In this document: positions 19,297 to 45,639 of the stretch, piece after piece
How the letters are laid out: the number at the start of each line of letters is the position of its first letter
Position numbering within the stretch: position 1 is the first letter of the stretch
Assembly: GCA_964410055.1 (NCBI GenBank)
Contig: CAYPGK010000001.1
Span: 4,101 to 68,100, forward strand
Length of the DNA stretch: 64,000 nucleotides
Direction of reading: 5' to 3'
Origin: an uncultured Gemmatimonadaceae bacterium
Lineage (GTDB): Bacteria; Gemmatimonadota; Gemmatimonadetes; Longimicrobiales; RSA9
Position numbers and translations under genes: made by a program
The notes under the pieces: generated by a model
What the model was told of the DNA's origin: nothing
The model's database searches: none
What the model saw: only the letters and a program-made list of their open reading frames with translations

Positions 19297-19309
19297 TTAT
19301 AATGTATCC
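19297..19309. promoter_or_regulatory. dyad-motif site a (TTATAATGTATCC)
   Basis: ATA-N3-TAT core with TATCC half-site. 98 nt upstream of the OCD-family gene. Contains TATAAT. Confidence 0.45.
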
Positions 19310-19406
19310 AATGGAAACGCGCCGGGGGCGCGGAGTTGGGTAGGATCGGGCCGGGGCGAGTGGGTACGGGGACGGGGATGCGGCCCGCCGTTCGAGGGAG
19401 AGTTCC

Positions 19407-20345
19407 ATGAGAGTGATCGAAGCGAACGACGTACATCGGGTTCTGGAGTTTCCGGCGCTGATCGAGGCGTTGCGCCGGGCCTTCGGATCGCCGGCGGGGA
19501 TGCCGCAGCGGCTGATGTTTCCGTTGGACCCGGATGGAGGTTCGAGGGACGTGTTCGCGTTGCTGCCGTCGTGGAACGCGGACGTGATCGGGGTGAAGGC
19601 GTTCACGTACCTGCCCGGGAACGCGGCCGAGGGTCGTCCGATCCTGCACTCGAAGATCCTGCTGTTCGATCGTCGGACGGGTGAGCCGATGGATCTGGTG
19701 GACGGGACGACGGTGACGTACTGGCGTACTGCGGCGATGGCGGGTCTTGCGGCGGACTATCTGGCGCGGAAGGATGCGCGTCGGCTGCTGGTCTGCGGGA
19801 CGGGTCATCTGGCGCCGTACATGGCGCTCGCGCACGCGTCGGTGCGTCCGATCGAGGAGGTGGTGATCTGGGGGCGGAACCCGGAGAAGGCCGAGCGGGT
19901 GATCGAGCAGATCGGCGAGCGCCGCTCGGACCTGCGCTGCCGCGTGGCGGGGAACCTGGAGGAGGAGGCGGGTGCGGCGGACGTGATCAGTTGCGTGACG
20001 GCGTCGCCGGATCCGATCATTCTGGGCCGCTGGGTCCGGCCGGGCACGCACACGGATTTCTTCGGCAACCACGAGCGGGACGGGCGTGAGTGCGACACCG
20101 AGATGGTGGTGAAGTCCCGGGTCTACGTGGACAGCCGGGTGAACGTGCTGGCCGAGGCGGGTGAGCTGTTGATTCCGATTTCGGAGGGCCGATTCTCCGC
20201 GGACGATGTGTTGGGCGAGTTGGCGGACCTGTGCTCCGGCGCGGTGAAGGGGCGGGGCTCGGACGACGAGATCACGATGTTCAAGTCCGTGGGCACCGCG
20301 CTCGCGGACCTCGCTGCCGCGGAACTGGTATCGCGGAGCCTGTAG
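19407..20345 (+). CDS. ornithine cyclodeaminase/mu-crystallin family protein (candidate pyrroline-2-carboxylate reductase)
   Basis: Family-typical TYWRTAAMAGLAA and VCGTGHLAP Rossmann motifs. 312 aa. The specific substrate is inference. Confidence 0.9.
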   Translation: MRVIEANDVHRVLEFPALIEALRRAFGSPAGMPQRLMFPLDPDGGSRDVFALLPSWNADVIGVKAFTYLPGNAAEGRPILHSKILLFDRRTGEPMDLVDGTTVTYWRTAAMAGLAADYLARKDARRLLVCGTGHLAPYMALAHASVRPIEEVVIWGRNPEKAERVIEQIGERRSDLRCRVAGNLEEEAGAADVISCVTASPDPIILGRWVRPGTHTDFFGNHERDGRECDTEMVVKSRVYVDSRVNVLAEAGELLIPISEGRFSADDVLGELADLCSGAVKGRGSDDEITMFKSVGTALADLAAAELVSRSL

Positions 20346-20396
20346 TCGAGGGCGCCGCCCTCGGATGGACCACAACACGGGAGACGAGGAGGATCC

Positions 20397-21308
20397 ATGA
20401 CTCCGAACTGGCAGGGCGTATATCCAGCCCTACCCACCCAGTTCCACGAAGATCTATCCGTCGACATCGATGGAACGATGCGTCATTTCGAGGCGCTCAT
20501 CGACGCGGGCGTTCACGGAATGGTGCTTTTGGGGACGATCGGGGAGAACAACTCGCTCACCGCGGAAGAGAAGCGTGAAGTGCTGCGCGCGGGAGTGGAG
20601 GTTGCGCGGGGGCGCATCCCGGTCCTTTCTGGCGTGTCCGAGCTGACGACGGCCGCGGCGTGCCGGTACGCGGCGGATGCGGCGGAGATCGGCATCGACG
20701 GGCTGATGGTGCTCCCGGCGATGGCGTACCGTGCGGACCGTCGGGAAGCGGTCGCGCACTTCCGCGCGGTCGCGGCGGCGGGCCCGCTGCCGATCCTGTG
20801 CTACAACAACCCGAAGGTCTACGGTGTGGACCTGACGCCGGACGTCTTCGTCGAGCTCGCGGACGTGGAGACGATCGTCGCGGTCAAGGAGGCGTCGGGT
20901 GATCCGCGTCGCCTCACGGACATCGTGAACGCCGTCGGCGATCGCTACATCCTCTTCGCCGGGCTGGACAACGTGGTGCTCGAGAGCGTGATGCTCGGCG
21001 CCGTCGGCACGGTGTTCGGCGTGGTGAACGCGTTCCCGGCCGAGACCCTCTACATGTGGGACCTCGCCATGCAGGGCGAGTGGGAGAAGGCGGTGGAAAT
21101 CTACCGCTGGATGATGCCGCTCCTGCACCTGGACGACCATCCGAAGCTCGTCCAGTACATGAAGCTGATGTCGCAGGAGTGCGGCTACGGCCACGAACGC
21201 GTGCGGCTGCCGCGCCTGACGCTGGCGGGCGAGGAGCGTGAGCGCGTCCTGTCCATCATCCGGAAGGCCAAGGAGACGCGTCCCGCGATCCCCGTGGCTG
21301 CGGGCTGA
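20397..21308 (+). CDS. dihydrodipicolinate synthase (DapA) family lyase (candidate pyrroline-4-hydroxy-2-carboxylate deaminase)
   Basis: GTIGENNSLT and Schiff-base lysine context IVAVKEASGD. 303 aa. The deaminase role is inferred from the hydroxyproline genes in this window. Confidence 0.9.
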   Translation: MTPNWQGVYPALPTQFHEDLSVDIDGTMRHFEALIDAGVHGMVLLGTIGENNSLTAEEKREVLRAGVEVARGRIPVLSGVSELTTAAACRYAADAAEIGIDGLMVLPAMAYRADRREAVAHFRAVAAAGPLPILCYNNPKVYGVDLTPDVFVELADVETIVAVKEASGDPRRLTDIVNAVGDRYILFAGLDNVVLESVMLGAVGTVFGVVNAFPAETLYMWDLAMQGEWEKAVEIYRWMMPLLHLDDHPKLVQYMKLMSQECGYGHERVRLPRLTLAGEERERVLSIIRKAKETRPAIPVAAG

Positions 21309-21336
21309 GGCCGCTCCAGGCTGCGGTCGTGAACTT

Positions 21337-21375
21337 CGCCCCGCGCTCCAGATCGGAGCGCGGGGCGTTGTATTC
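21337..21375 (+). terminator. rho-independent terminator after the DapA-family gene
   Basis: 13-bp perfect stem CGCCCCGCGCTCC/GGAGCGCGGGGCG, 5-nt loop, then TTGTATTC. Confidence 0.8.
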
Positions 21376-21439
21376 GTGACCGGTTTGGATCGGAGCCCGC
21401 GGGCCCGGTTCGAGTGCGAGCCGGGTGAATGGTCTGACC

Positions 21440-22747
21440 TCAGCCGCGCGCAATGCCGCTGCGTTCGCGCAGTGCGTCGCTCAATTTCCCGGCGTACGCG
21501 AGCGACAGGATCTGCACCGTGTGCATTACGGGCGGCGGTGCGCCGGCGCCGTTGCCGTTCAGGTGCGTGCGGATCTGGACCATGCACCCGATGTTGCCCA
21601 GCGCGACGAGGTCGGCGCCTGTGCGTCGCACGGCATCGGCCTTCATCTGTCCGAGCTCCTCGGCGATCTCCGGCTGGTCGATGTTGTAGGTGCCTGCGGA
21701 GCCGCAGCAGCGCTCGCCGTCGTCGAGCTCGACCAGTTCGAGCCCCGGGATGGCGCGGAGCAGCCGGCGCGGCTCGGAGCGGATCTGTTGCGCGTGGCAG
21801 AGGTGGCAGGCGTCGTGGTAGGCCACGCGCAGCGGCTCCTCGAGCGCGGGCGGCGGCACGAGGCCGAGGCGGTCGAGGAAGACGGAGATGTCGACGGCGC
21901 GCTCGGAGAGGGCGCGCGCGGCCTCCTCTTCCGGCTGGCCCGCGAACATCAGCGGGTACTCCCGGATCCCGGAGCCGCACCCCGCGGCGTTGACGATGAT
22001 GGCGTCGACGTCGTCGGGGAACGCGTCGAGGAGTTTACGCGCGTGCGCGCGTGCGGAGTCGGCCGCGCCGACGTGCCACCCCAGGGCGCCGCAGCACCCT
22101 TGACCCCTCGGGACGACGACTTCGACGCCGTTTCGCGTGAGGACGTCGATCGTGGCGCGGTTGATCGCCGGCTCCATCGCCTCCTGGACGCACCCGACGA
22201 GGAGCGCGACGCGCGCCCGGCGCGGGCCGATGGCCGGGATGGTCTCCGGGATCGCCTCGGCCGCCGCCAGCCTGTCCGGGACCAGGTCCAGCATGGGGCG
22301 GAGCGGGGCGGGGACGGCGGGGCGCAGCCAGCGGGTCATGCGGCCGGCCGTCACGGCGAGGCGGAAGCGCCGCGGGTAGGGGAGGGTGTTCAGCGTCAGC
22401 CACCGCTTGAGCCGATCGATGAGCGGCCTGCGGGTCTCCTCCTCCGAGACGGCACGGAACGGGAGCAGCAGCTTGTGGTACGGCACGCCCGACGGGCACG
22501 CGGACTCGCACGCCAGGCAGCCGAGGCAACGGTCCACGTGCTCGGCGACGGCGCTGGTGTCGAGCTCGCCTTCCAGCGCGCCCTTCATCAGGTAGATCCG
22601 CCCGCGCGGCGAATCCATCTCCTCGCCGAGGACCTGGTACGTCGGACAGGTGGGCAGACAGAAGCCGCAGTGCACGCATGCGCTCGCGGCTTCGGCCATG
22701 GCTTTCCCGTACGCGCCCAGCTCCTCGATCGGGATGCGGTGCTGCAT
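21440..22747 (-). CDS. glcF: glycolate oxidase iron-sulfur subunit
   Basis: Two ferredoxin-type motifs CVHCGFCLPTCP and CLGCLACESACP, plus C-terminal CCG-type repeats. ATG 22747. Confidence 0.85.
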   Translation of the reverse strand: MQHRIPIEELGAYGKAMAEAASACVHCGFCLPTCPTYQVLGEEMDSPRGRIYLMKGALEGELDTSAVAEHVDRCLGCLACESACPSGVPYHKLLLPFRAVSEEETRRPLIDRLKRWLTLNTLPYPRRFRLAVTAGRMTRWLRPAVPAPLRPMLDLVPDRLAAAEAIPETIPAIGPRRARVALLVGCVQEAMEPAINRATIDVLTRNGVEVVVPRGQGCCGALGWHVGAADSARAHARKLLDAFPDDVDAIIVNAAGCGSGIREYPLMFAGQPEEEAARALSERAVDISVFLDRLGLVPPPALEEPLRVAYHDACHLCHAQQIRSEPRRLLRAIPGLELVELDDGERCCGSAGTYNIDQPEIAEELGQMKADAVRRTGADLVALGNIGCMVQIRTHLNGNGAGAPPPVMHTVQILSLAYAGKLSDALRERSGIARG

Positions 22748-22764
22748 TCTCCTACCCTGCTCGT

Positions 22765-23886
22765 CTATGCTGAAACCGCGGCCGACACGGCGTCGCCTTC
22801 CGGCACCAGCGCCGGGAACCGGCCATCGGGGTCGAGCGCGCTCTTGATGCGACGCGCGAAGACGGCCGCGCCCGTGTCGATCGGGCCGAGCCACGGCAGC
22901 GTGCCTTCCTGCGCCGGCCCGCGCACGACGAGGCCGGCGAGTCCGGACGTATCCAGCTCACCGAGCGGCCGGTCGGCGGGCCAGGCGATCCATGCGACGT
23001 TCCCGGCGACGGCGTAGCGCCGCGCCACACCCTGCGCATCGAGCGCCCGCTCCAGCTCGGCGAGGCGGCGGAGGGTGAGGGGGACCTTGATGATCCGGCT
23101 CTCGGGCGCCCAGGCGAAGTCCCTGAGCCCCTGCCAGTACGCCTCCTCCTCCTCGCCGGCGACGAGATCGAAGCGCCGGCCGGTCGCGGCGCCGACCCGG
23201 GCCGCGTGCACGTCCAGCGTCGCTTCCTCGCCCGAGACACGCACCACGAGCGTGCCGGGTGGCTCGAAGTCCAGCGCCTCCAGGTCGAAGGGCCGGCGTC
23301 CGAGCTCGGCCATGACCGCGACCGCGTCCTCGACCCCGTCGCAGGCGATGCGGATCGTGCGCCATGCAGGCGGTGTGGGGAAGACCTTGAAGGACAGCTC
23401 GACCAGCACGCCGAGGCGGCCGAGGCTGCCGACCACGAGCTTCGGCACGTCGAAGCCGGCGGCGTTCTTTACGACCTTCCCTCCGCCCCGGACGAGCCGC
23501 CCGGTCCCGTCGACCAGCCGCACGCCGATGATGAAGTCTCGGATCCCCCCGTACCGGAGCCGGCCGGAGCCGTTCAGCCCCGCCGCGACCGTGCCGCCGA
23601 GCGTCGCGCCGGCGCGGGCGAGGGGCGGGTCGAAGGGGAGGTGTTGGCCGTGGCGGGCCAGGAGCGCCTGGATCTCCTCCAGCGGCGTGCCCGCGAGCGC
23701 GGTGAAGGTGAACTCGTCCGGGTCGTACTCGACCACGCCGGAGAGCCGCGTCGTGTCCAGGTACACCGCGCCCGCCTCATGGGCGACGAGCGGCGCCTTC
23801 GTCCGCGCGCCGTGCGCAATGATGAGCCCATGCTCGCGCACCGCCGCGACGACATCCTCGATCCGTTCGGGCACGAGCGCAGTCAC
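22765..23886 (-). CDS. glcE: glycolate oxidase FAD-binding subunit
   Basis: FAD_binding_4-like N-terminus. GTG start at 23886 overlaps the glcD stop by 4 nt. Position between glcD and glcF. Confidence 0.8.
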
Positions 23887-25388
23887 GTCGCCTCCACAGC
23901 AGAGCGGTCTTCCGGCGCGCCGCCGCTCGCATGAGCGGCCGATCTCGCGTACCCTGCCGCACCGCCGGCTGCTGCGGCCGAACCATTCCCGGCCCCGAAC
24001 TCTTCGGCAGCCGGGAACATCTTCCCCCGGTTCGCGACCTGCTTGGGATCGAGGGCGAGGCGCAGCCGCTGGAACGCGTCGACGTCGTCCGGCGCGAACA
24101 TGCGTGTGAGGAACGCGCGCTTCTCCACGCCCACACCGTGCTCGCCGGTGATGGAGCCGCCCAGCTCGATGCAGAGGTCGAGGATGCGGCCGGCCAGCGC
24201 CTCGGCGCGCTCGAACTCGCCCTCGCGCTGGCCGTCGTAGAGGATGAGGGGGTGCAGGTTGCCGTCGCCCGCGTGGAAGACGTTGGCGACGCGCAGCCCG
24301 TACTCGCGCGACAGCTCGCCAATGCGGCGCAGCGCCAGGCCGAGCCGGCTGCGCGGGACGACGCCGTCCTGCACGATGTAGTCCGGGCTGATGCGGCCGA
24401 CGGCGGAGAAGGCGCTCTTGCGCCCCTTCCAGATCGCCGCCCGCTCCTCGGGCGACGTGGCCGTGTGCACGCCGATCGCGCCGGACTCCTGGATCAGCGC
24501 ATCCAGCCGGCGCCGCTCGGCATCGAGCAGGTCGCGCGGCGCCTCCAGCTCGACGATCAGGACCGCTTCCGCGCCCGGCGGATACTCGGTGTGCACCGCG
24601 GCGGCGGCCGCCTCGATCGCCGTCGCATCCATGATCTCCATCGCCGACGGGAGCAGCCCCGCGGCCACGATGCGCGCCACGGCGTCGCCCGCCTCCTCGA
24701 TCGTGCCGTAGCCGGCCAGGATCGTGTACGACGCCTCGGCGATGGGGAGCAGCCGCAGCGTGATCTCGAGCGCGATCCCGAAGAGCCCCTCGCTGCCGAC
24801 GAAGAGGCCGGTCCAGTCCGGGCCGATCGACTCGAGGCTGTCGCCGCCCAGCTCGACCACGTCGCCCGTGGGGAGCACTGCCTTCAGCCCCAGGACGTGG
24901 TTCGCGGTCATGCCGTACTTGAGGCAGTGCGCGCCGCCGGAGTTGAAACCGATGTTCCCGCCGACGGTGCAGACTTGCTGGCTGGAAGGGTCGGGCGCGT
25001 AGTGGAGCCCGTGTGCCGCCGCGGCGCGCGTGACCTGGAGGTTGATCACGCCCGGCTCGACCACGGCGATGCGCCGGTCCGGATCCAGTTCGAGGATCCG
25101 GTTCAGCCGGTTCAGCGCGATGACGACGCCGCCCTCGACGGGGAGCGAGCCGCCCGAGAGGCTGGTTCCGCTCCCGCGCGGGACGAACGGTACGCCGAGG
25201 TCGTGACAGAGACGGACGGTGCGGATGACCTCATCGGCCGACTCCGCGACGACGACTGCCGTGGGAGAGACGGCGAACGCAGTGAGTGCGTCGGACTCGT
25301 ACGCCGCGAGCTGCGCGCGGCCCAGGAGCAGACGTCGCTCCGGGACGATCGCGCGCAGCCCTCGGATCAGTTCGGTGGTGGGCGCCAT
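23883..25388 (-). CDS. glcD: glycolate oxidase / FAD-linked 2-hydroxyacid oxidase subunit
   Basis: ATG 25388 ([11 protein letters not shown]). FAD-binding [12 protein letters not shown]-terminal [11 protein letters not shown]. Confidence 0.9.
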
Positions 25389-25458
25389 CAGCCGGCGCGG
25401 CGGCGGGGCTCGATGCGCCCCCGCGCCGCCCTCCGGTGCCGATGGCCGAACGGCTCGG

Positions 25459-26298
25459 TCATGCCTGGAATCGGATCGACTTGAACTTGCGCGTCTGCTC
25501 CTCGATCGCCGCTTCCGTGGCCAGCCGCTCGATGCTCGACGCGCCGAAGAAGCCGACCACGCCCTTGGTCCGCTCCAGAACATACTGCGCGTCCTCCGGG
25601 TGCGCGATGGGGCCGCCGTGGCAGAGCACCATCACGTCCGGGTTGACGGACTTGGCCGCGTCGTGGATCGCCTGGATGCGGTCGACCGCCTCGTCCAGCG
25701 TCATCGCCGTCTTGTCGACGCCGATCGAGCCGCCGACCGTCGTATGCACGTGCGCGACGACCACGTCCGCGCCCGCCTCCGTGAACCAGCGCGCCGTTTC
25801 CTCGTCGAAGACGTACGGGCAGGTGAGCATCCCCAGCTCGTGCGCCTGGGCGATCATCTCGACCTCGAGCCGGATGCTCATCCCCGTCTCCTCGAGCGCG
25901 CGACGGAACTCGCCGTCGATCAGCCCGACCGTCGGGAAGTTCTGCACGCCGTCGAAGCCCATCTCCTTCAACTGCGGCAGGAACACCCGCATCATGCGGA
26001 ACGGATCGGTGCCACAGACGCCCGCCAGCACCGGCGTGTCCTTCACGACCGGCAGGACCTCGCGCGCCATGTCCACCACGATGGCGTTCGCATCGCCGTA
26101 GGGCATGAGGCCGCTCAGGCTCCCGCGACCCGCCATCCGGTAACGGCCCGAGTTGTAGATGATGATCAGGTCGACGCCGCCCCGTTCGGCGAACTTCGCC
26201 GAGATCCCCGTCCCCGCGCCGGCACCGATGATCGGCTTGCCGGCCTCGACCTGCGAACGGAGACGACGCAGACACTCCTCGTAACCGATGAAAGGCAT
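25459..26298 (-). CDS. phosphoenolpyruvate hydrolase-like TIM-barrel protein (C-terminal-half homologue of plant Tm-1)
   Basis: ATG 26298 ([10 protein letters not shown]). Recognised family pattern [35 protein letters not shown]...[11 protein letters not shown]. Confidence 0.8.
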
Positions 26299-26305
26299 GA
26301 CTCCC

Positions 26306-27523
26306 TCAATCCTTTCGTTGTGGCATGACGCGCAACAGCTCGTCCACGAGCGCGCGCGCGAATTCACGATCGTTGATGTGGGCGTCCACTTCCACGATCC
26401 GCACGTTCGGGCCGACGTTGGCCCGCAACGTGTCGAAGAGCACCCGGTCGGCCTCCGGGTCGTGGAACGGCTGCCCCTCCGCGTCGATCATGCTGACGCC
26501 CCGCAGCGGGAGCACCAGCACCACCGGGCCCTGCGCCCGGCTGAGCTGCGCTGCGATCCGACGCCCGATCTCCTCGCACTCCGCAGGCGTCGTCCGCATG
26601 AGCGTGACCGACGGATTGTGGCGGTACAGGTTCCGATCACGGAACTTCTCCGGGACCGTCTCGATCCCGCCGAAGTTCACCATGTCCAGCGCGCCGACCG
26701 AAACGACCTGCGGGATCCCCGCCCGACCGGCCGCCGACAGACGGTCCGGCCCGGCCGACAGCACCCCGCCCACCACCTCGTCGCACCACTCCGTCGTCGT
26801 CACGTCCAGCACGCCGGCGAAGTAGCCGTCGTCGATCAGCCCTTCCATTGCCCGGCCGCCCGCGCCCGTCGCATGGAAGACCATGACGTCGTAGCCCGCC
26901 TCCTCCAGCATCTGGCGCGCGGCCGTCACGCACGGCGTGGTCACCCCGAACATCGTCGCCGCGATCAGCGGCCGGCTCTCTGCCTGCGGGACCTCCTGCT
27001 CCACCATCCCGCAGATCGCTCCCGCGGCGTTCGCGAGCACCCGGCGCAGCAGCGGGTTCAGCCCCGCAATGTCCACGACCGAGTACATCATCGTGAGGTC
27101 CTTGATGTCCACGTACGGGGCCGTGTTGCCCGACATCATCGTGGACACCATCATCTTCGGCACGCCCACCGGCAGGACCCGCATCGCCGCGGTCACCATC
27201 GCCGTGCCGCCGCCGCCGCCCAGACCCAGCACGCCGTCGAAGCGGCCCTCCTCGTGCAGACGCGCCACGATCTTGCGCGCACCCGCGAGCATCACTTCGA
27301 TCGCTTCTCCACGATCGCCGCGCGCGCGCAGCTCCTCCAGCGTCGCGCCCCCGGCGCGAGCCACCTCGTCCGCACCGATGTCCGCCTCGATCTGCGGATC
27401 CCCGAGAACCCCCAGGTCGAGGATCAGGACCTCATGGCCGCGCGCGCGGATCAGATCGCGAACGTAGCCGTACTCCTCGCCCTTCGTGTCGAGCGTGCCG
27501 ACCAGCAGGATCGTCCGCGCCAC
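26306..27523 (-). CDS. UPF0261 family protein (Tm-1-like ATP-binding, N-terminal-half homologue of plant Tm-1)
   Basis: [20 protein letters not shown]...GLGGGGGT...[11 protein letters not shown] pattern typical of UPF0261. 405 aa. Confidence 0.85.
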
Positions 27524-27536
27524 GACGACCTCCCCG

Positions 27537-27977
27537 TCAATGACCCGCCGCCGCGGAGCCCGCGCTCCGAAGCGACCGCCACGGCTCCTCCTGCGACACG
27601 TCCACCACCGCCGGCCCCTCGCTGCGCGCAGGCGACAGGATCGCCAGGAACACCAGCGTCTCCTCCCCCACGTTGTACGTCCCGTGCACCTCGCCGCGAG
27701 GAATGTGCGCCATCTCGCCCGGGCCCAACACCCGGCTCTCCTGGCCGACCCACTGCTCCGCCTTCCCAGAGATCACGTAGATGATCTCCTCCAGCTCCGG
27801 GTGCGTATGGAACGCATGACCGGCGCCCGGCGGCATGTGCACCCGCACGAGCTGCAGATCCTCCGCCGCCGTCAGCCCCGGTCGGCACAGCCAGTCGTGG
27901 GGTCCCCACGGCAGCAGTTCGACTTCCTTCTCCCGATCCGTGACGAAACGGTGTGGCGCGCTCGAACTCATATCCAC
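27537..27977 (-). CDS. cupin domain protein
   Basis: Cupin motifs HTHPELEEIIYVISG and GEMAHIPRGEVHG. 146 aa. Confidence 0.8.
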   Translation of the reverse strand: MDMSSSAPHRFVTDREKEVELLPWGPHDWLCRPGLTAAEDLQLVRVHMPPGAGHAFHTHPELEEIIYVISGKAEQWVGQESRVLGPGEMAHIPRGEVHGTYNVGEETLVFLAILSPARSEGPAVVDVSQEEPWRSLRSAGSAAAGH

Positions 27978-28054
27978 CGACTCCGGGCTGGGTTAGGGGC
28001 GGCGTCGCGGCGCCGCGCTCTCGTGTGGTTGCGTGCCTCAGGCAGGAGGCCATA

Positions 28055-28067
28055 ATATACATTATCC
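28055..28067. promoter_or_regulatory. dyad-motif site b (ATATACATTATCC)
   Basis: 78 nt upstream of the cupin operon start (minus strand), in the divergent region shared with SusC. Confidence 0.45.
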
Positions 28068-28177
28068 CCCAGGCCGGCAAGCGCGTTGCGGCGCGGAATC
28101 TCGATCTCCCGGCATCGCCCGTCAGTGCCCTGGCCGCGTCGGTGGACCGGGACTCTTGCCCTTGCGGATTTCGCACC

Positions 28178-28190
28178 GAATATTATATCC
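28178..28190. promoter_or_regulatory. dyad-motif site c (GAATATTATATCC)
   Basis: 134 nt upstream of the SusC ATG. One mismatch from the GGATA-N3-TATCC dyad. Confidence 0.45.
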
Positions 28191-28323
28191 AACTTCGACC
28201 AATGCTCGCCCGAACCCTGACGCGACGACGCATGGGGCGTCGTCCGCAAGTCGCCTCCTGAGCCCGGAAACCGCACGACGCGGGATTCCGGTCCTTGCAA
28301 CCCCGCTTCACGGAGTCATTGCC

Positions 28324-31284: not shown

Positions 31285-31414
31285 GCGATCACGAGCGGAC
31301 GCGTCGGGGCGCGGCCACGGCCGGACACGGCCGGCCCCGACGTCCGCAGGCCGAACCGGACCAATGTTGGACTCACGCGCGTCGAACCGCGCCCAACAGG
31401 AAGCACGGAATAAA

Positions 31415-33025: not shown

Positions 33026-33065
33026 TGTCGTCGCCGCCCACCCTCGCGGTGGGCGAGTGACGGAC

Positions 33066-33110
33066 ACGCACGGGTGCCGCTTGCCCAGCCGGCACCCGTG
33101 CGTTGTTTCT
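33066..33110 (+). terminator. rho-independent terminator after SusD
   Basis: 14-bp perfect stem ACGCACGGGTGCCG/CGGCACCCGTGCGT, 10-nt loop, then TGTTTCT. Confidence 0.8.
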
Positions 33111-33334
33111 GCCCTCCCGGCGGGTTCCCACGGGATCGGCAGGCCGCTCGGGACCCAACCCGGTCGACCGGTCCGCGCGCCGGCGCGATACCCGGCCCGG
33201 CATCTGCATGGACCCTTCCCTGCACGAGGTTGCGGAGACCAGCGGGCCGGACCCATCATGGGGCGTCATGCCCCATGCGTCGAACGGGCTCGCGTCACGC
33301 TCCATCGCCGCTGCAGGCGGCAAAGGAGGGGAGC

Positions 33335-33817
33335 ATGTCGAGGAGAGGACCACGCGCGGTTGTCGCGGGTGCCGCCCTGTTCGCGGTCGCCTGCGGCCCG
33401 CCCGGGCTTCCGCCCGCCGGACCGGAACCCGGGGAGGTGGAAATCGGGTACGATGCGCAGCCCAAGGAGGAGGTGACGGGCGCCGTCACCTCCATCCCGG
33501 AAGACCAGATCGCCGAACATCGTCCGCTCCGTTTCGACGAGCTGATGCGCGGTCGCGTGCCCGGGTTGACCGTCATCCCGCGCGGCGACGGCGGCTACAC
33601 GATCCGGATCCGGGGGATCGACTCCCTCGAGTCCTCGCCGGAACCGCTCATCGTCGTCGACGGGATCCCGATCACGACGGATGCGATCGACACCGCGCTC
33701 GCCGGGCTTACGCCGGACGACATTCGGCAGGTGGACGTGCTCCGGGACGTATCCGCCACGTCGATTTACGGAATCCGCGGCGCCGGCGGCGTGATCATCA
33801 TCACGACGCGAAGGTAG
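33335..33817 (+). CDS. stand-alone TonB-dependent-receptor plug domain lipoprotein
   Basis: ATG 33335 after GGAGGGGAG. Lipobox LFAVAC. Residues about 40-160 align by eye with the plug of the SusC protein (EEVTGAVTSI...IRGI...PLIVVDG...SIYGIRGAGGVIIITTRR). No barrel follows. Confidence 0.75.
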   Translation: MSRRGPRAVVAGAALFAVACGPPGLPPAGPEPGEVEIGYDAQPKEEVTGAVTSIPEDQIAEHRPLRFDELMRGRVPGLTVIPRGDGGYTIRIRGIDSLESSPEPLIVVDGIPITTDAIDTALAGLTPDDIRQVDVLRDVSATSIYGIRGAGGVIIITTRR

Positions 33818-33887
33818 CGGTGCGGGACCGGGCGCGACGCCCGGGGCCCCTGCCCCGCGCGCCGCGCCTCGATCCTGCACGGTTGCC

Positions 33888-35449: not shown

Positions 35450-37849
<2,400 letters not shown>

Positions 37850-37911: not shown

Positions 37912-37942
37912 TTGACACCGTCTCGCTACGGACTTTTATATT
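37912..37942 (+). promoter_or_regulatory. sigma70-like promoter for the DUF885 gene
   Basis: TTGACA at 37912-37917. A spacer of 17-19 nt leads to TTTATA/TTATAT/TATATT. Confidence 0.4.
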
Positions 37943-37948
37943 ATATCC
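37936..37948. promoter_or_regulatory. dyad-motif site d (TTATATTATATCC)
   Basis: Lies between the divergent S9 peptidase and DUF885 genes. Overlaps the -10 of a TTGACA-N17-19 promoter. Confidence 0.45.
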
Positions 37949-38079: not shown

Positions 38080-39963
<1,884 letters not shown>

Positions 39964-39977
39964 GCTACGGTGCCGCG

Positions 39978-40017
39978 TGAGCCGGCCCGGCCGCGATCGG
40001 GCGGCCGGGCCGGCTCA
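39978..40017 (+). terminator. strong stem-loop after the DUF885 gene (no U-tract)
   Basis: 17-bp perfect stem TGAGCCGGCCCGGCCGC/GCGGCCGGGCCGGCTCA, 6-nt loop. Confidence 0.6.
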
Positions 40018-40031
40018 TGCCCGGGAGCGTC

Positions 40032-40044
40032 GGATACGATATAA
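40032..40044. promoter_or_regulatory. dyad-motif site e (GGATACGATATAA)
   Basis: 81 nt upstream of the MFS ATG, 15 nt after the 17-bp stem-loop that follows the DUF885 gene. Confidence 0.45.
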
Positions 40045-40124
40045 AAGGCCCAGCACCCCTGCTCCGACTGTGGGACGGAGCCGCGGGGCTGCACGCGAGA
40101 GCACCCTTACAGGAAAGGCAGGTC

Positions 40125-41687
40125 ATGGGGATCGCGAGCGAAACGGAACGCGGCATTGCGCGCGGCAGGCTGTTCACGGGCGTCTGCCTGGCGCTGGTGC
40201 CGACCGGCGCATCCTTCGCGCTGGTCAGCAACATCCTGATCCAGCTCAAGCAGGAATTCATCCTGACGAACTACCAGGTTGGCCAGATCTCGGGCGCGGC
40301 GGTGTGGGGGATGGCGGTCTCGCTCCTGATCTTCGGCCCGCTCCTGGAGTCGTACGGGATGAAGAACGCGGCGCGGGCCGCGTTCGGCGCGCATCTTCTC
40401 GGGACGACGCTGATGATTTCGGCGGTGACGCGGGTGGGTGATCCATCCGCGTTCTGGTTGTTGATGGGGGGTGCCGCGCTGCTGGCAATGGGGAACGGGA
40501 TGATCGAGGTGACGGGCAATCCGCTGGTCGCTGCGCTCTACCCGGACCAGAAGACGATGCGGCTCAACTGGTTCCACGCCTTCTTCCCGATCGGGATGAT
40601 GGCGGGCGGGCTGATCGGCTTCGTCATGGCGAACTGGGGCGGGCCGCTGGCGTACTGGCCGTACCAGCTCGCGGTCATCTACCTGCCGGTGCTGGTCTAC
40701 GGCTTCCTGCTGCTCCCGCAGCAGTTCCCGAAGACGGAGAACGCGGAGGCCGGGCTGCCGTGGAAGGAGATGTTCCGCTACACGCTGACGCATCCGGCCG
40801 TCCTGATGATGCTCGTCCTCATGGGGATCTCCACCTCGATCGAGATGGGCCCGATGCGTTGGATCCCGGCGATGCTGGAGTCGGCCGGCGTGCACGGGAT
40901 CCTGGTGCTCGTCTGGATCAGCGGGTGGATGGTGCTGCTCCGGATGCTGTCCGGTCATTTCGTGAAGCGCCTCTCGCCTCCGGGGATGCTCGTCACGGCG
41001 TCGTTCCTGACGGGGACGGGGCTGGTGCTCTTCAGCTTCGTCGAGTCGATGTGGTCGGCGCTGCTGGTGGCGACGGTCTACGCGTGGGGGATCGCCTTCT
41101 TCTTCCCGACGATGGTCGGCACGTTGAGCGAGCGCTGGCCCAAGACGGGCTCGCTCGGGATCGTGCTCATGGGCGGGATGGCGTTCCTCATCTCGGGCGG
41201 CGTCGGCGTGCCGCTCATGGGCAAGCTCGCGGACGGCTACCTGGCCGAGGCGCTCGACCCGGCGGCGACCGTCGCGTTCCTGGAGCAGGTCGAGGAGCGC
41301 TTCCCCGAGCACCTCGCGCGGGCGGAATCGGCGGAGGACGCGTCCGAGCTCGGCTACAGGGCGGGCGAGGTCCGCGATGCGCTGGCCGCGGCGACCTCCG
41401 CGCTGGAGGTCTACCGCTCGACGGGCGAGCTGCCCGGTGATGCTACGGCGAACGCGCTGCGAAGCGTCCTGGCGACGCAGGTGCCGGGCGAGCCGCTGGT
41501 CGGCGAGGCGGGCGCGATCCTGCAGCCGGTCGAGGCGTACGGCGGGAAGATGTCCTTCCGCTACGTCGCGCCGGGCGCCCTGATCCTGTTCGTCGTGTTC
41601 GGCATCATGTACCTGAACGACCGTCGCCGGGGCGGCTACCGCGTCGTGCGTCTGGAGCACGTCACGGAAGGCGCGTCGGCCGACTGA
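40125..41687 (+). CDS. MFS transporter with ~120-aa soluble insertion before the last TM helix
   Basis: ATG 40125. 11 TM-like segments, then a soluble stretch (LAEALDPAAT...VEAYGGK) and a final TM APGALILFVVFGIMYL. Confidence 0.85.
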   Translation: MGIASETERGIARGRLFTGVCLALVPTGASFALVSNILIQLKQEFILTNYQVGQISGAAVWGMAVSLLIFGPLLESYGMKNAARAAFGAHLLGTTLMISAVTRVGDPSAFWLLMGGAALLAMGNGMIEVTGNPLVAALYPDQKTMRLNWFHAFFPIGMMAGGLIGFVMANWGGPLAYWPYQLAVIYLPVLVYGFLLLPQQFPKTENAEAGLPWKEMFRYTLTHPAVLMMLVLMGISTSIEMGPMRWIPAMLESAGVHGILVLVWISGWMVLLRMLSGHFVKRLSPPGMLVTASFLTGTGLVLFSFVESMWSALLVATVYAWGIAFFFPTMVGTLSERWPKTGSLGIVLMGGMAFLISGGVGVPLMGKLADGYLAEALDPAATVAFLEQVEERFPEHLARAESAEDASELGYRAGEVRDALAAATSALEVYRSTGELPGDATANALRSVLATQVPGEPLVGEAGAILQPVEAYGGKMSFRYVAPGALILFVVFGIMYLNDRRRGGYRVVRLEHVTEGASAD

Positions 41688-41752
41688 ACCGGCACGATCC
41701 GGTAATGATTCACCATTTCCAAGCGAGTCAGGCGATGACGGATAAGCATAAG

Positions 41753-44700
41753 ATGAACGTGCCTGGACGGATCGCGCGAGCGCTCCGGAGCGGCTTGCCG
41801 GCGGTGCTGCTCGCCGCGTGTGCGCCGGCGGGCGTCGAGGCGCCCGCACCGACGCCCGCGCCGGTGAAGGCCGCGCCCGTCGCGCTTTCGACGAAGGCGG
41901 CGCCGGCGCCGGCCGCGAACCGGGTGCGGGTGCTGTTCCTGGGCGACAACGGGCATCACCGCCCGACGGAGCGGGCGAAGTCCGTGCTTCCGGTCCTGGC
42001 GCACAACGGGATCGACCTGTTCTACACGGACGACCCCGCGGACCTCTCGCCGGAGGTCCTGAAGGACTATCACACGCTCGTCTTCTACAACAACCAGCCG
42101 TGGATCTCGCGCGATCAGCTCGCGTCGCTGACGTCGTTCCTGGAGAACGGCGGCGGCCTGGTCGTGGTGCACTCGGCGTCGGCGTCGTTCCAGAATTCGG
42201 ATGAGTTCATCCGGATCGTGGGCGCGGCGTTCAAGAGCCACGGCACGGGCACGTTCCGGGCGAAGCGGGTGGCGGACCACCCCGTGGTGCAGGGTGTGCC
42301 GAACTTCGAGTCGTGGGACGAGACGTACATCCACACGAAGCACAATCCGGATCGCACGGTGCTCGAGGTACGCGTCGAGGACGGGCACGAGGAGCCGTAC
42401 ACCTGGGTGCGCAACTACGGCCAGGGCCGGGTCTTCTACACGGCCTGGGGCCACGACCACCGCACGTGGGGGAACGAGGGCTTCCAGCAGCTCCTGACGC
42501 AGGCGATCAAGTGGACGGCCGGGGACTGGGCCTTCAACCTGAAGGCCGCCGAGCCGACGCCGGCCACGACGAAGCTCGCCGTGCCGCTCCCGATCTACGA
42601 GCGGCCGCCGGCACCGTGGAACACGCTGGCCGGGTTCGTCGACTCGGCGCAGGTCCCGCTCGAGCCCGAGGAGTCGTACGCGCTCACGACGCTGCGGCCC
42701 GGCTTCCGTATCGAGCCGTTCGCCTCGGAGCCGATGATCCGCAACATCATGGACTTCACCTGGGACGAGCGCGGGCGGCTGTGGGTCGTCGAGTCCACCG
42801 ACTATCCGAACACCGTGCTCCCCGACGGTGAGCCGGGCGGCGACCGGATCCTGATCCTCGAGGACACGGACGGCGACGGCCAGGCGGACACGGTCAAGGT
42901 CTTCGCCGACGGGCTCAACCTCGCCACGTCGCTCGTGTTCGCGAACGGCGGGCTGATCGTGGCCCAGCCGCCGCACATCTTCTTCTTCAAGGACACGGAC
43001 GGCGACGACCGCGCCGACGAGAAGCGCATCCTCTTCTCCGGCTGGCCGCGCAACGACACGCACGGCTCGGTCAGCAACCTGCGCTACGGCTTCGACAACC
43101 AGGTCTGGGGCTCGGTCGGCTACAACGGCTTCCGCGGCGAGGTCGGCGGAGTTCGGTTCGGCCGCGGCTCGGATGCCATCCTCATGGGCGCCGGCTACTT
43201 CCGCTTCGGGCCGGACGGCTCGTACCTCGACTACGTCGCTCGGACGAGCAACAACACCTGGGGCGTCGGGCTGAGCGAGGACGGCCACGTCTTCGGCTCG
43301 ACGGCCAACCGCAACGCGAGCAACTTCGTCCACATCCCGGGCCGCTACTACCGCGAGCTGATCGGCCAGACGCCGACGCTCCCGCCGATCGCGGACCGGC
43401 AGGACGTCTTCCCGCTGCGCGACATCTTCCAGGTCGACCAGTTCGGGATGTACACGGCGGGCACGGCGCACGAGATCTACACGGCGCGCGCCTTCCCGCG
43501 CGAGTACTGGAACCGCGTCGCCTTCGTCGCGGATCCGACCGCCCACGCGGTCGGGATGTTCGAGCTGATCCCGGACGGGAGCGGCTACCGCGCGAAGAAC
43601 CGCTGGAACTTCATCGCGAGCCGCGACGGCTGGCAGTCGCCGATCCAGGTCAAGGTCGGCCCCGACGGCGCGCTCTGGGTCTCGGACTTCTACTCGCTGG
43701 TCGTGCAGCACAACCCGACGCCCGAGGGGATGGAGCGCGGGCCCGGCAACGCGTACGAAACGCCGAACCGCGACAAGGAGCGCGCCCGCATTTTCCGCGT
43801 CGTCTACGAGGGCGCGCCCGAGCCGGCGATCAAGAGCCTGGCCGACGCGACGCCGGCCGAGCTCGTCGCCGCGCTCCGCGACGACAACATGTTCTGGCGC
43901 TTCACGGCGCAGCGCCTCCTCGTCGAGCGGGGTGAGCGCGATGTCGTTCCGGCGCTCGTCGAGCTGGCGAGCGACCACACCATCGACGAGCTCGGGCTCA
44001 ACCCCGGCGCGCTGCACGCGCTCTGGACGCTCGAAGGCCTCGGCGCCCTCGAGAGCGATCCGCGCGCGCTCGAGGCGGCGCGCCGTGCGCTGCACCACCC
44101 GTCGGCCTCGCTGCGCCGCGCCGCGCTCATGATGCTGCCGCGCGACGGCCGACTGCTCGACGACATCTTCGCCGCCGGGATCCTCCCCGACCGCACGTCG
44201 CCTCACAAGGTCGACTACACGGTCGGGTCGGCGGTGCTGCAGGACGCGGACGCCCAGGTGCGTCTCACCGCGCTCCTCGCCCTCTCCGAGCTGCCCGCCT
44301 CGCCGCGGGCCACCTCGGCGATCGTCGAGCTGATGACCACGCCGCAGAACGCGCGCGACCGCTGGATGCCCGATGCCGCAGCCATCGCCGGCGTCCGGCA
44401 GGGGACCGACGTCGCCGTCGCGCTGCTGCGCTACCAGCCGCACGAGCGGCTCGCGCAGGACACCGCCTACATGGCCGGCATCGCTCGTACCGTCCAGCTC
44501 ATGGCGCACCATTTCGCCATGAAGCAGGACGTCGGCGCCCTGGTCACGCTGCTCGAGGCGGTCCCCGGCGCGAACACTCGCATCGCCGCAGGAGTACTTA
44601 CCGGTATCGCCGGCGGCCCCGCCGATGAACAGGGGCGCCAGCGCGGCGGTCCGGGCGGCTGGCCGGAGGGCACGCCGGCCGAGCTCACTGCCGCGCAGCG

Positions 44701-44809
44701 CACGTCGCTCGCGAACGTCGCCCGCCGCATCCCGGCGGAGCTGGCCGACGACTTCGCTCGCGTCGCGAGCCGCCTGGGCTTCGACCCGGCGGCCGGCGCC
44801 CGGCGGTGA
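41753..44809 (+). CDS. ThuA-domain / PVC-type membrane-bound-dehydrogenase-domain / HEAT-repeat lipoprotein, lacking the usual CxxCH heme domain
   Basis: ATG 41753. Lipobox VLLAAC. ThuA-like RVLFLGDNGHH...VVVHSASASF...FYTAWGHD. Middle propeller-like GRLWVVES...DTDGDGQAD. C-terminal HEAT-like repeats. The lipobox Cys is the only Cys in the protein. Confidence 0.8.
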   Translation: MNVPGRIARALRSGLPAVLLAACAPAGVEAPAPTPAPVKAAPVALSTKAAPAPAANRVRVLFLGDNGHHRPTERAKSVLPVLAHNGIDLFYTDDPADLSPEVLKDYHTLVFYNNQPWISRDQLASLTSFLENGGGLVVVHSASASFQNSDEFIRIVGAAFKSHGTGTFRAKRVADHPVVQGVPNFESWDETYIHTKHNPDRTVLEVRVEDGHEEPYTWVRNYGQGRVFYTAWGHDHRTWGNEGFQQLLTQAIKWTAGDWAFNLKAAEPTPATTKLAVPLPIYERPPAPWNTLAGFVDSAQVPLEPEESYALTTLRPGFRIEPFASEPMIRNIMDFTWDERGRLWVVESTDYPNTVLPDGEPGGDRILILEDTDGDGQADTVKVFADGLNLATSLVFANGGLIVAQPPHIFFFKDTDGDDRADEKRILFSGWPRNDTHGSVSNLRYGFDNQVWGSVGYNGFRGEVGGVRFGRGSDAILMGAGYFRFGPDGSYLDYVARTSNNTWGVGLSEDGHVFGSTANRNASNFVHIPGRYYRELIGQTPTLPPIADRQDVFPLRDIFQVDQFGMYTAGTAHEIYTARAFPREYWNRVAFVADPTAHAVGMFELIPDGSGYRAKNRWNFIASRDGWQSPIQVKVGPDGALWVSDFYSLVVQHNPTPEGMERGPGNAYETPNRDKERARIFRVVYEGAPEPAIKSLADATPAELVAALRDDNMFWRFTAQRLLVERGERDVVPALVELASDHTIDELGLNPGALHALWTLEGLGALESDPRALEAARRALHHPSASLRRAALMMLPRDGRLLDDIFAAGILPDRTSPHKVDYTVGSAVLQDADAQVRLTALLALSELPASPRATSAIVELMTTPQNARDRWMPDAAAIAGVRQGTDVAVALLRYQPHERLAQDTAYMAGIARTVQLMAHHFAMKQDVGALVTLLEAVPGANTRIAAGVLTGIAGGPADEQGRQRGGPGGWPEGTPAELTAAQRTSLANVARRIPAELADDFARVASRLGFDPAAGARR

Positions 44810-44846
44810 CCGCGCCTCCTGCAACACCGAACGTAGAGGTACCGAG

Positions 44847-45371
44847 ATGTTTCGTAGGGATCGATTCGCGTTCACTCGTCGGCACCGGGCACGCGGAGGG
44901 ATCCTCCCGCCGCTCCTGGCCGCCGCCGCGATCCTCTTCCTCGGCCAGGGCGCCCTGCACGCGCAGGCGCCCGCCGCCGAGCTGCCCCGGCCGGGCGCGC
45001 CGGTCGACACCGTCATCACCATCCGCACCACGGGCAGCAACCTCGAGTTCGCGCCCTCGCAGATCGCGGTGAAGGCAGGCACGCGCGTCCGTATTCGTTA
45101 CATCAACGACGGGACCCTCCCCCACAACATCGTGCTGGTGAAGGACGAGGCCGACATCGACATGCTCGGGATGGCCGCCTTCTCCGCCGGGGAGACCGGG
45201 TACGTCCCCGTCGAGCACGCCGACCGCATGTACGCCTACAGCGAGCTCGCCGTCCCCGGGACCACCGTCGAGATCGAGTTCACGGCTCCACCGCCGGGCG
45301 AGTACTTCTACGTGTGCCTCTACCCGGGTCACTACAACATGATGATCGGGACGCTGAGATCGCTCCCGTAG
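44847..45371 (+). CDS. type-1 (blue) copper cupredoxin, azurin-type ligand spacing
   Basis: ATG 44847, 38 nt after the upstream stop. Signal peptide with RR. Ligand candidates PHNIV...YVCLYPGHYNMM (C-x4-H-x3-M). Confidence 0.85.
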   Translation: MFRRDRFAFTRRHRARGGILPPLLAAAAILFLGQGALHAQAPAAELPRPGAPVDTVITIRTTGSNLEFAPSQIAVKAGTRVRIRYINDGTLPHNIVLVKDEADIDMLGMAAFSAGETGYVPVEHADRMYAYSELAVPGTTVEIEFTAPPPGEYFYVCLYPGHYNMMIGTLRSLP

Positions 45372-45382
45372 TACGGACGGAA

Positions 45383-45416
45383 GCCGGGTGCGTGGGCTCC
45401 TGCCCACGCACCCGGC
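45383..45416 (+). terminator. stem-loop after the cupredoxin gene
   Basis: 15-bp perfect stem GCCGGGTGCGTGGGC/GCCCACGCACCCGGC, loop TCCT. Confidence 0.65.
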
Positions 45417-45524
45417 GACCCTCCGCCTCCACCCACCGGACCGGGGCACCCCCGAACCCGCGATTCGAGTCACCGTCGCGCCGACTCGCCGCCCGTCCGC
45501 CCTAGCAACATCCGAGACAACGCT

Positions 45525-45537
45525 GGATATCGTATAG
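45525..45537. promoter_or_regulatory. dyad-motif site f (GGATATCGTATAG)
   Basis: 119 nt upstream of the GntR ATG. Confidence 0.45.
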
Positions 45538-45626
45538 AGTTCGGGGTATTTTTCTTCAGGTGACGTATGGTGTGGCGCAGCGTTCAGATCGCGGGTCCGT
45601 CGCGCTTGCGGCGCGGCCGGCGTGTG

Positions 45627-45639
45627 GGATATCCTATCC
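45627..45639. promoter_or_regulatory. dyad-motif site g (GGATATCCTATCC, perfect inverted repeat)
   Basis: 17 nt upstream of the GntR ATG. GGATA-TCC-TATCC is perfectly symmetric. Confidence 0.5.

Follow-up and report, generated by a model that had tools for sequence, protein, structure and literature searches.

A 13-bp inverted repeat in the promoter regions of a predicted hydroxyproline and peptide utilisation locus in Gemmatimonadota, and a GntR/FCD protein as its probable regulator

The 64-kb stretch of a Longimicrobiales (Gemmatimonadota) genome analysed here, referred to as the window, has a G+C content of 70.3%. Between 19 and 51 kb it carries predicted genes for peptide uptake, peptidases and hydroxyproline catabolism, a gene for a GntR-family transcription factor with an FCD domain, and seven copies of a 13-bp inverted repeat of the form GGATA-N3-TATCC. 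A preliminary description of the window had listed these copies as candidate operators of a single regulon. All seven 13-mers were found exactly at the positions it had given. Every copy is intergenic and lies 17–134 nt upstream of a start codon, and there was, as had been said, no site in 0–19 kb or in 46–64 kb.

The gene map was drawn from open reading frame (ORF) calls based on G+C content at third codon positions (GC3) together with Pfam and NCBIfam searches, and agreed with that of the preliminary description. Site 1 precedes two genes on the forward strand (19407–21308), encoding an OCD-family Delta1-pyrroline-2-carboxylate (Pyr2C/Pip2C) reductase and a DHDPS-family protein in the Pfam search; the OCD protein, at 420.9 bits, clears the cut-off of 322 set for the NCBIfam equivalog NF004793. 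Sites 2 and 3 share a divergent intergenic region. On the reverse strand, site 2 is followed by genes for a cupin, a UPF0261 (Tm-1-like) protein, a PEP_hydrolase-like protein and GlcD-, GlcE- and GlcF-like proteins (21440–27977; Pfam), while on the forward strand site 3 is followed by genes for a SusC-like TonB-dependent receptor, a SusD-like lipoprotein, a stand-alone Plug protein and an FG-GAP repeat protein (28324–35384; Pfam). Site 4 separates the gene for an S9/DPP-IV-type peptidase (35450–37849, reverse strand; Pfam) from the divergent gene for a DUF885 protein (38080–39963, forward strand; Pfam), which also lies downstream of a TTGACA promoter. Genes for an MFS transporter, a protein combining ThuA, DUF7133 (PVC-type heme-binding) and HEAT domains, and a cupredoxin (40125–45371, forward strand; Pfam and NCBIfam TIGR02604) are found downstream of site 5. 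Sites 6 and 7 lie upstream of the GntR/FCD gene (45656–46393, forward strand; 245 aa), the proposed reader of the motif. It is followed on the same strand by the hydroxyproline catabolic genes (46446–51531). Their products are an aldehyde dehydrogenase that best matches alpha-ketoglutarate semialdehyde dehydrogenase, a member of the proline-racemase family whose best match is 4-hydroxyproline epimerase, a dehydrogenase of the DAO type, a small protein with a Fer2 domain, and a Pyr_redox_2 subunit. Apart from the GntR gene, Pfam revealed no transcription factor in 19–51 kb. For three genes the start was corrected to an ATG downstream of the longest-ORF start, namely SusC (28324), DUF885 (38080) and MFS (40125).

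The preliminary description had judged that the sites were improbable by chance, and this was borne out when the window was compared with its own dinucleotide-preserving shuffles. The pattern ATANNNTATCC (ATA-N3-TATCC, either strand) occurs at seven places where 0.04 were expected; because the perfect palindrome at 45627–45639 counts on both strands these make eight matches, a number that no shuffle reached. A looser pattern, GGATANNNTATCC with up to two mismatches, was not enriched in the window (10 found, 6.9 expected), indicating that the signal is carried by the ATA-N3-TAT core with at least one GG/CC arm, and by the weight matrix described below. This is the invariant core, flanked by GG/CC on at least one side, that the preliminary description had named. 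Only 13–17 bp are common to the sites and their flanks are unrelated, and an origin as a repeat or mobile element was therefore rejected.

A symmetrised weight matrix of 17 columns was constructed from one GntR-proximal site from each of 22 other genomes, with the window excluded, and has the consensus TT-GGATAY-N-RTATCC-AA. The seven window sites score 13.6–24.4 bits with this independent matrix, which adds one further match, GGATATTGAATCC (28929–28941; 16.4 bits), within the SusC frame. The next-best position in the window reaches 7.2 bits and overlaps site 2, and the best non-overlapping position after that reaches 4.8 bits; the scores are bimodal, with the matches at 13.6 bits or more and everything else at 7.2 bits or less. 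A first-order Markov null gave 0.03 matches per 64 kb at the composition of the window and 0.05 per 5.8 kb at intergenic composition. In the matrix scan the motif was absent from every other intergenic region of the window. The earlier count of seven stands for the intergenic sites, and the intragenic match at 28929 is an eighth.

Syntenic contigs of close relatives (L081, L082, L085, L086 and L087, with 84–90% protein identity, plus L083 and L084) were used to follow the individual sites; L083 is an 81% relative, and L088 an 80% relative. Phylogenetic footprinting, which the preliminary description had proposed, identified sites 1–5 and 7, though not site 6, as conserved islands in diverged orthologous spacers. 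Site 1 (TTATAATGTATCC, 19297–19309, 18.1 bits) contains TATAAT at 19298–19303, and the ATG of the OCD-family gene follows 98 nt downstream of it. A conserved island, ATATAATGTATCCAAT, is present upstream of OCD in L083 and L084, and sites precede OCD in L085–L087 too. The cupin gene, on the minus strand, starts about 78 nt downstream of site 2 (ATATACATTATCC, 28055–28067, 18.7 bits), which overlaps both the spacer and the -10 hexamer of a promoter-like TTGCCG-17-TATTAT (28052–28080). This promoter-like element was corrected to the minus strand, where it reads towards the cupin/UPF0261/PEP-hydrolase-like/GlcDEF operon, and is the sole sigma-70-type match in 27900–28300 (0.0 expected in shuffles). 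Site 2 is kept together with the TTGCCG hexamer in L085, L086 and L087, and L085 has TTGCCG-17-TATAAT at this position. Site 3 (GAATATTATATCC, 28178–28190), 134 nt upstream of the SusC ATG, has the top score in the window (24.4 bits), and TTGGATATAATAT is invariant in four of four aligned genomes. Both sites of this divergent SusC/cupin region are conserved in L085–L087. The eighth match lies further downstream, inside the SusC Plug domain over the codons for D-I-E-S-I-S, which end in A/T (GAT ATT GAA TCC ATT) in the window and in L087. L085 and L086 encode these residues with codons ending in G/C, as is typical of the genome, and lack the site. This match could be an auxiliary intragenic operator or a product of chance, and its functionality is uncertain.

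Site 4 (TTATATTATATCC, 37936–37948, 21.2 bits) lies 87 nt from the S9/DPP-IV ATG (37849, minus strand) and 132 nt from the DUF885 ATG. L081 and L082 have exactly this 13-mer at the corresponding position, where the remaining spacer has diverged. A -35-like TTGACA (37912–37917, forward strand) stands 19 bp upstream of a TATATT (37937–37942) inside the site. The preliminary description had proposed a TTGACA promoter here, and hexamer and 19-bp spacing are both kept in L081 and L082 amid diverged DNA. Site 5 (GGATACGATATAA, 40032–40044, 15.6 bits) is 81 nt upstream of the MFS ATG, and GGATAnnATATA is kept in L081 and L082 within a diverged spacer. The two remaining sites precede the GntR gene. 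Site 6 (GGATATCGTATAG, 45525–45537), 119 nt upstream of the ATG, is the weakest at 13.6 bits; L081 carries GTATACAATATGG elsewhere in its GntR upstream spacer. Site 7 (GGATATCCTATCC, 45627–45639, 18.6 bits), 17 nt upstream of the ATG, is the perfect inverted repeat. It directly precedes an AAGGAG ribosome-binding site and overlaps a -10-like TATCCT located 18 bp after TTGCGG (45606–45611). In L082 the same position is occupied by GGATAGGATATCC, in which the arms are kept and all three spacer bases differ.

The association of the motif with the regulator gene was examined in a sample of 80 genome loci encoding relatives of the window GntR protein. Among the 31 best-matching loci, nearly all of them labelled Gemmatimonadota, the window-derived pattern was found within 400 bp upstream of the GntR ortholog in 24, where about 0.06 were expected as estimated from base composition. 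The upstream copy is usually a perfect GGATA-N3-TATCC (GGATACTTTATCC, GGATATTGTATCC or GGATACTGTATCC). Where GntR is not the first gene of a string (L002, L012, L016, L021, L031 and L083), the site precedes the whole string, which is headed by a DPP-IV gene in L002, L012 and L016 and by an amino-acid permease gene in L031. In nearly all Gemmatimonadota loci the same set of hydroxyproline catabolic genes lies after or around the GntR ortholog. The positions of the sites predict that the regulator controls its own gene and the core genes, as sites 6 and 7 precede the GntR-Aldedh-ProRac-DAO-Fer2-PyrRedox string and site 1 precedes OCD-DHDPS, and the predicted core arrangement, with a site before the GntR/hydroxyproline genes, is seen in more than 20 genomes. 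The analysis shows the motif to be real and strongly enriched, limited among intergenic regions to these promoters, positionally conserved between genomes, and associated with the GntR and hydroxyproline genes across the phylum. The presence of the motif upstream of the orthologs, together with the hydroxyproline synteny, is the strongest argument supporting the GntR protein as the cognate, autoregulated factor. The preliminary description had favoured a single factor, with the protein at 45656 as the obvious candidate; the orthologous loci, the synteny, the footprints and the independent matrix all point the same way.

In L083 (4690–16105), and also in L084, the OCD, DHDPS, DUF885, GntR and hydroxyproline genes follow one another without interruption, and one site only is present, upstream of OCD. 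In light of this arrangement, the window blocks at 21.4–38 and 40–45.6 kb (GlcDEF/Tm-1-like, SusCD, DPP-IV and MFS-ThuA) appear to have been inserted or rearranged into what was ancestrally one operon, each with its own putative operator.

The protein itself belongs to the FadR-FCD subfamily of GntR regulators, with matches to PF00392 (E = 2e-17) and PF07729 (E = 1.5e-27). No NCBIfam equivalog cut-off was reached, and the protein hence has no equivalog name. Its best solved relative is 3c7j, and 7u5q, 7xp0 and 4p9f (McbR) are related FCD structures. H159, H203 and H225 are invariant in an alignment of 26 orthologs, and in number and spacing they resemble the triads of TM0439 and of Streptomyces coelicolor HypR (PMC6608401), as judged from sequence. 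Orthologs in Longimicrobiales and other Gemmatimonadota range from 93% down to 57% identity. Further afield, the protein is 45–55% identical to regulators encoded beside DHDPS, ProRac, DAO and OCD genes in Microvirga, Arhodomonas, Aliidongia, Vogesella and Vibrio. On the basis of similarity and genomic context it appears to be an ortholog of the proteobacterial HypR-type proteins found beside hydroxyproline genes. Gemmatimonadota, Acidobacteriota, Proteobacteria and cyanobacteria all have the same winged helix-turn-helix (wHTH; LRQDAIA-ELGVSRIPVREALRQLEAEGLV).

In orthologs from the Nostocales (L053, L057, L064, L066, L069, L071–L073, L075 and L079), GGATATTGTATAC(AATATCC) is present once or twice at the start of the gene itself (approximately 9890–9930). 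These orthologs are divergent from an unidentified gene, and no hydroxyproline genes were detected nearby. In cyanobacteria this orthologous group may control something else.

In a genome of 70% G+C, A/T-rich -10 regions would be conspicuous in themselves, and the 13-mers could be just such regions with no dedicated factor, an explanation that we regard as highly improbable. The sites do contain TATAAT-like hexamers, site 2 coincides with a predicted -10, five of the nine stretches in the window with at least 10 A/T in 12 positions are motif sites, and 21 of the 31 positions of all-A/T hexamers in the window fall in or at the seven sites. Against this, the motif is an inverted repeat with G/C arms that is seen in both orientations relative to the downstream gene, whereas a -10 element is directional, and the other intergenic regions of the window lack it. 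In L088 the cupin promoter is a plain TTGACG-17-TATAAT without the motif. The motif also tracks the GntR gene across more than 25 genomes.

The same question was addressed on a larger scale with the entire plasmid 1 (1,106,233 bp; L094–L116 in our sample) of the cultured strain Gemmatirosa kalamazoonensis KBS708. All nine matches of at least 16 bits fall within a 51-kb cluster (299.3–350.4 kb), leaving none in the 1.05 Mb of the replicon outside it, and between 11 and 16 bits the scan gave just two more, which score 13.3 bits, are identical to each other and belong to a repeat. The genes that follow the nine sites are a SusC-like gene; a divergent pair encoding an unknown protein secreted by twin-arginine translocation (TAT) and a GH127 beta-L-arabinofuranosidase; the orthologs of SusC-SusD-Plug-FG-GAP; a Sortilin/BNR-prolidase pair; the GntR-hydroxyproline operon; and a divergent pair of DHDPS and a ProRac paralog. 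The preliminary description had named a general -10 box, occurring at similar density before unrelated genes, as the outcome that would undo its proposal; on this replicon the matches are confined to the hydroxyproline/peptide cluster. TATAAT does not occur on either strand of the replicon, where about 7 per strand were expected, and this too is hard to reconcile with a mere -10 sequence.

Other A/T-rich words are also scarce on this replicon, with 77 all-A/T hexamers against 458 expected and TTGACA several-fold depleted. Canonical sigma-70 hexamers seem to be avoided there.

The content of the predicted regulon varies between genomes. Besides the hydroxyproline genes, the motif precedes genes for DPP-IV/S9 peptidases (L002, L012 and L016), SusC/SusD (L017), an Xaa-Pro aminopeptidase (L022), DUF885 proteins (L014, L081 and L082), a cyclophilin-domain protein (L001) and an amino-acid permease (L031). 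The DPP-IV gene of L021 is probably motif-preceded as well, with a site about 1.4 kb upstream of the ORF. Hydroxyproline catabolism, proline-specific peptidases and SusCD uptake constitute, as predicted from these sites, a core common to several orders of the phylum. The cupin-GlcDEF gene order is conserved in L085–L088, with the upstream motif in L085–L087 and not in L088, and the MFS-ThuA-cupredoxin order is conserved with site 5 in L081 and L082; for both operons the motif was found only in the close clade of the window. The proposal of the preliminary description that one regulon ties all these operons together thus held for peptide uptake, peptidases and hydroxyproline catabolism, and for the Tm-1-like/GlcDEF and MFS-ThuA-cupredoxin operons it extends no further than that clade. 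The L088 promoter without a motif limits the claim for the cupin and MFS operons, yet at the same time it serves as a control against the idea that the motif is only a -10.

Several features of these modules were noted in passing. In L088 (1–21206) the cupin-UPF0261-PEP_hydrolase-TonB receptor-GlcDEF genes are divergent from MFS-ThuA/DUF7133-cupredoxin-malate synthase. The cupin-GlcDEF and MFS-ThuA modules, which adjoin malate synthase there, may belong to one pathway that produces glycolate or glyoxylate. A 700-aa TonB-dependent receptor is encoded between PEP_hydrolase-like and GlcD in L085 (12062–14185), L086 (12074–14185) and L088 (12063–14186), and is missing in the window and L087. The SusC-SusD-Plug-FG-GAP order is conserved in L085–L087 and Gemmatirosa. 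The stand-alone Plug ORF (33074–33817 in the window, 3434–3922 in L085, 309842–310360 in the Gemmatirosa record; about 162 aa as called in the relatives) is conserved between SusD and FG-GAP across two orders, and a Plug domain without a barrel is unusual.

Regulons of this type have precedents. HypR regulons have been predicted in silico in Proteobacteria (RegPrecise; Rodionov et al. 2011, PMC3223726; Leyn et al. 2016, PMC5343134), where HypR is a GntR/FadR-subfamily protein that adjoins hydroxyproline genes and is usually autoregulated (PMC5343134, PMC3223726). The core of those regulons comprises the epimerase, D-hydroxyproline dehydrogenase, deaminase and semialdehyde dehydrogenase, with lineage-specific additions such as Pro-specific peptidases, a peptide permease, a TonB-dependent receptor, ornithine cyclodeaminase-family genes and collagenases (PMC5343134). 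In common with them, the window has a GntR/FadR regulator beside hydroxyproline genes, a similar core and a near-identical wHTH; compared with the alpha-, beta- and gammaproteobacterial regulators located next to DHDPS, ProRac and OCD genes, the identity of the whole protein is 45–50%. It differs in its phylum, in its 13-bp GGATA-N3-TATCC operator, which has no GT/AC core, and in the predicted addition of SusC/SusD, DUF885, the Tm-1-like/PEP-hydrolase-like/GlcDEF operon and the MFS-ThuA-cupredoxin operon. The preliminary description had cautioned that the motif is not a classic FadR-type operator, and rightly so, since the consensus GGATAY-N-RTATCC has no GT...AC core.

The motif of HypR has been described as TKGT-N2-ACMA (PMC4494728). 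In the cyanobacteria and Proteobacteria sampled here, the orthologs are associated with a 20-bp palindrome whose core, TTGTATA(C/A)AA, fits that description (GGATATTGTATACAATATCC in cyanobacteria, GTAGATTGTATAAAATCTAC in Microvirga and GTATATTGTATAAAATATAC-like in Vibrio). The Gemmatimonadota 13-mer corresponds to the first 11 positions of this palindrome closed by CC, and in a few Gemmatimonadota sites a third hexamer follows at 7-bp phasing, for example GAATATTGTATCCAATATCG in L016. We found no changes in the wHTH that would explain 13-bp as opposed to 20-bp operators, the recognition helix and wing being essentially invariant. With a virtually identical wHTH across groups, the difference would be one of operator architecture and not of the reading head.

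Other characterised systems are more distant. HypR of S. coelicolor (SCO6294), which has been characterised experimentally, is an autoregulated FCD-type GntR repressor with a site over its own -10; it controls hydroxyproline catabolic genes, peptidases and a collagenase, and three conserved FCD histidines bind metal (PMC6608401). Its operator, CTNTGC(A/C)ATGTCAC, is unrelated in sequence to that of the window. According to White et al. 2012 (cited in PMC5343134), HypR of Sinorhizobium meliloti pSymB belongs to the GntR family, represses genes for the transport and catabolism of hydroxyproline, and is induced by hydroxyproline. Orthology to this protein was rejected, as BLASTP gave 26% identity over 206 residues. 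It belongs to a different orthologous group and is analogous to the window regulator, and its flanks carry TTGTCGACAA. The best S. meliloti homolog of the window group is located beside TRAP-transporter genes and not in the hydroxyproline cluster, and was likewise set aside. FadR is also a dimeric wHTH protein acting on short half-sites, and the arm spacing in the window (about 8 bp) is close to that of its TGGT-N3-ACCA, while NanR reads repeated GGTATA hexamers (PMC4494728) that resemble the GGATAT/GTATAC hexamers seen here. The half-site sequences of both differ from those in the window.

Taken together, we consider it probable, at roughly 80%, that the seven sites are operators of a hydroxyproline/proline-peptide utilisation regulon controlled by the GntR/FCD protein encoded at 45656–46393. 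Binding of the motif by the protein, repression and the identity of the effector are what we infer from the patterns described above. A dimer would bind the 13-bp inverted repeat (TT)GGATAY-N-RTATCC(AA), whose GGATA arms are about 8 bp apart centre to centre, near the geometry of a FadR-type operator. At most window sites one arm is good and the other is degenerate, A/T-rich and coincident with a -10-like hexamer. The bound regulator would then block RNA polymerase at six promoter regions, namely those of OCD-DHDPS, cupin-Tm-1-like-GlcDEF, SusC-SusD-Plug-FG-GAP, DPP-IV/DUF885, MFS-ThuA-cupredoxin, and its own gene with the hydroxyproline operon. An effector, probably hydroxyproline itself or one of its early catabolites, would bind in the FCD domain and cause the protein to let go, so that the genes for peptide uptake, for Pro/Hyp-specific peptidases and for catabolism would be de-repressed together. 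The position of the operator over -10-like hexamers at sites 2, 4 and 7 fits repression by promoter occlusion.

A number of observations weigh against this interpretation. Only one of the seven window sites (site 7) is a perfect palindrome. Site 6 has no counterpart at the aligned positions in L081 and L082. The operator has no GT/AC core, yet the wHTH is nearly identical to that of orthologs with TTGTATACAA-containing operators. In L088 the cupin and MFS-ThuA operons are divergent across a spacer without the motif, and these operons are accordingly not stable members of the regulon. The Gemmatirosa cluster holds two GntR paralogs, 61.5% and 63.4% identical to the window protein. Finally, a strict sigma-70 scan of five intergenic regions returned a promoter at site 2 only, and the overlap with a -10 at other sites rests on weaker hexamers and a 19-bp spacer.

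Since the strict scan was empty at sites 1, 3, 4, 5, 6 and 7, activation or dual control is possible at some of them. The regulator might bind as proposed and yet activate, or act dually, at sites 1, 3, 5 and 6, which lie about 80–135 nt upstream of the starts and where no promoter was found. FadR and some FCD regulators activate from upstream positions, and in S. coelicolor one of the HypR sites is located over 60 bp upstream of a transcription start (PMC6608401). We nevertheless think this rather unlikely, because wherever a -35-like hexamer is recognisable (sites 2, 4 and 7) the -10 region falls under the operator, at every site the degenerate arm resembles a -10 hexamer, and both S. meliloti HypR and S. 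coelicolor HypR, which have been characterised, act as repressors (PMC5343134, PMC6608401).

The two Gemmatirosa paralogs, both in the one 51-kb cluster, bear on another alternative, in which the sites are real and some or all of them are read by a different regulator, most likely a GntR paralog encoded outside the window, with the protein at 45656 controlling only its own operon. Near the second paralog the sites lean to GTATAC/TATGC arms, while those near the hydroxyproline operon are perfect GGATA...TATCC, and in the window one arm is degenerate, A/T-rich and similar to a -10 hexamer in six of seven sites; these observations speak for this alternative. Within 19–51 kb, however, only one member of the family and no other transcription factor is encoded, and in L083 and L084 the one site upstream of OCD serves a string that includes GntR itself. 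The recognition helix is, moreover, virtually invariant in the orthologs and paralogs sampled, and paralogs would probably read the same half-site. Control by a different protein is therefore improbable in our view, and the GntR/FCD protein at 45656 is preferred as the regulator of all seven sites.

The second Gemmatirosa paralog (63%) clusters with the SusC-like gene, the gene for the unknown TAT-signal protein (609 aa) and GH127, all motif-preceded (299458–305070 in the record). GH127 enzymes such as Bifidobacterium HypBA1 cleave hydroxyproline-linked arabinofuranosides. The occurrence of a GH127 beta-L-arabinofuranosidase under the motif in Gemmatirosa points to plant extensin-type substrates, and suggests that hydroxyproline-rich glycoproteins of this kind are the natural substrate.

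The concept of a GntR-type HypR regulon is already known from Proteobacteria and Streptomyces, and the present case extends known biology without conceptual surprise. What is new is the phylum, Gemmatimonadota, and the shortened 13-bp operator. A joint reading, in which the operator architecture has changed under a constant wHTH and the regulon is a Gemmatimonadota system for hydroxyproline-rich (glyco)proteins, is tentative and on balance doubtful. If its first part is true, the distance between the outer GGATA arms went from 10 to 3 bp, which would imply a different stoichiometry or binding to hexamer arrays, and would make this a clean case of operator architecture changing with the recognition helix fixed. 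Membership of the regulon would also give a first physiological context to the UPF0261/Tm-1-like, PEP-hydrolase-like and DUF885 proteins, to the ThuA-DUF7133 heme protein with its cupredoxin and to the stand-alone Plug protein. Hardly any transcriptional regulation has been characterised in the Gemmatimonadota, which are abundant in soil, and the phylum gains a well-supported candidate regulon with a defined operator, a candidate regulator and a cultured strain, G. kalamazoonensis KBS708. The prediction is that SusC/SusD uptake, Pro/Hyp-specific peptidases and hydroxyproline catabolism would be induced as one unit, a 'protein utilisation locus' for collagen-like or plant hydroxyproline-rich proteins.

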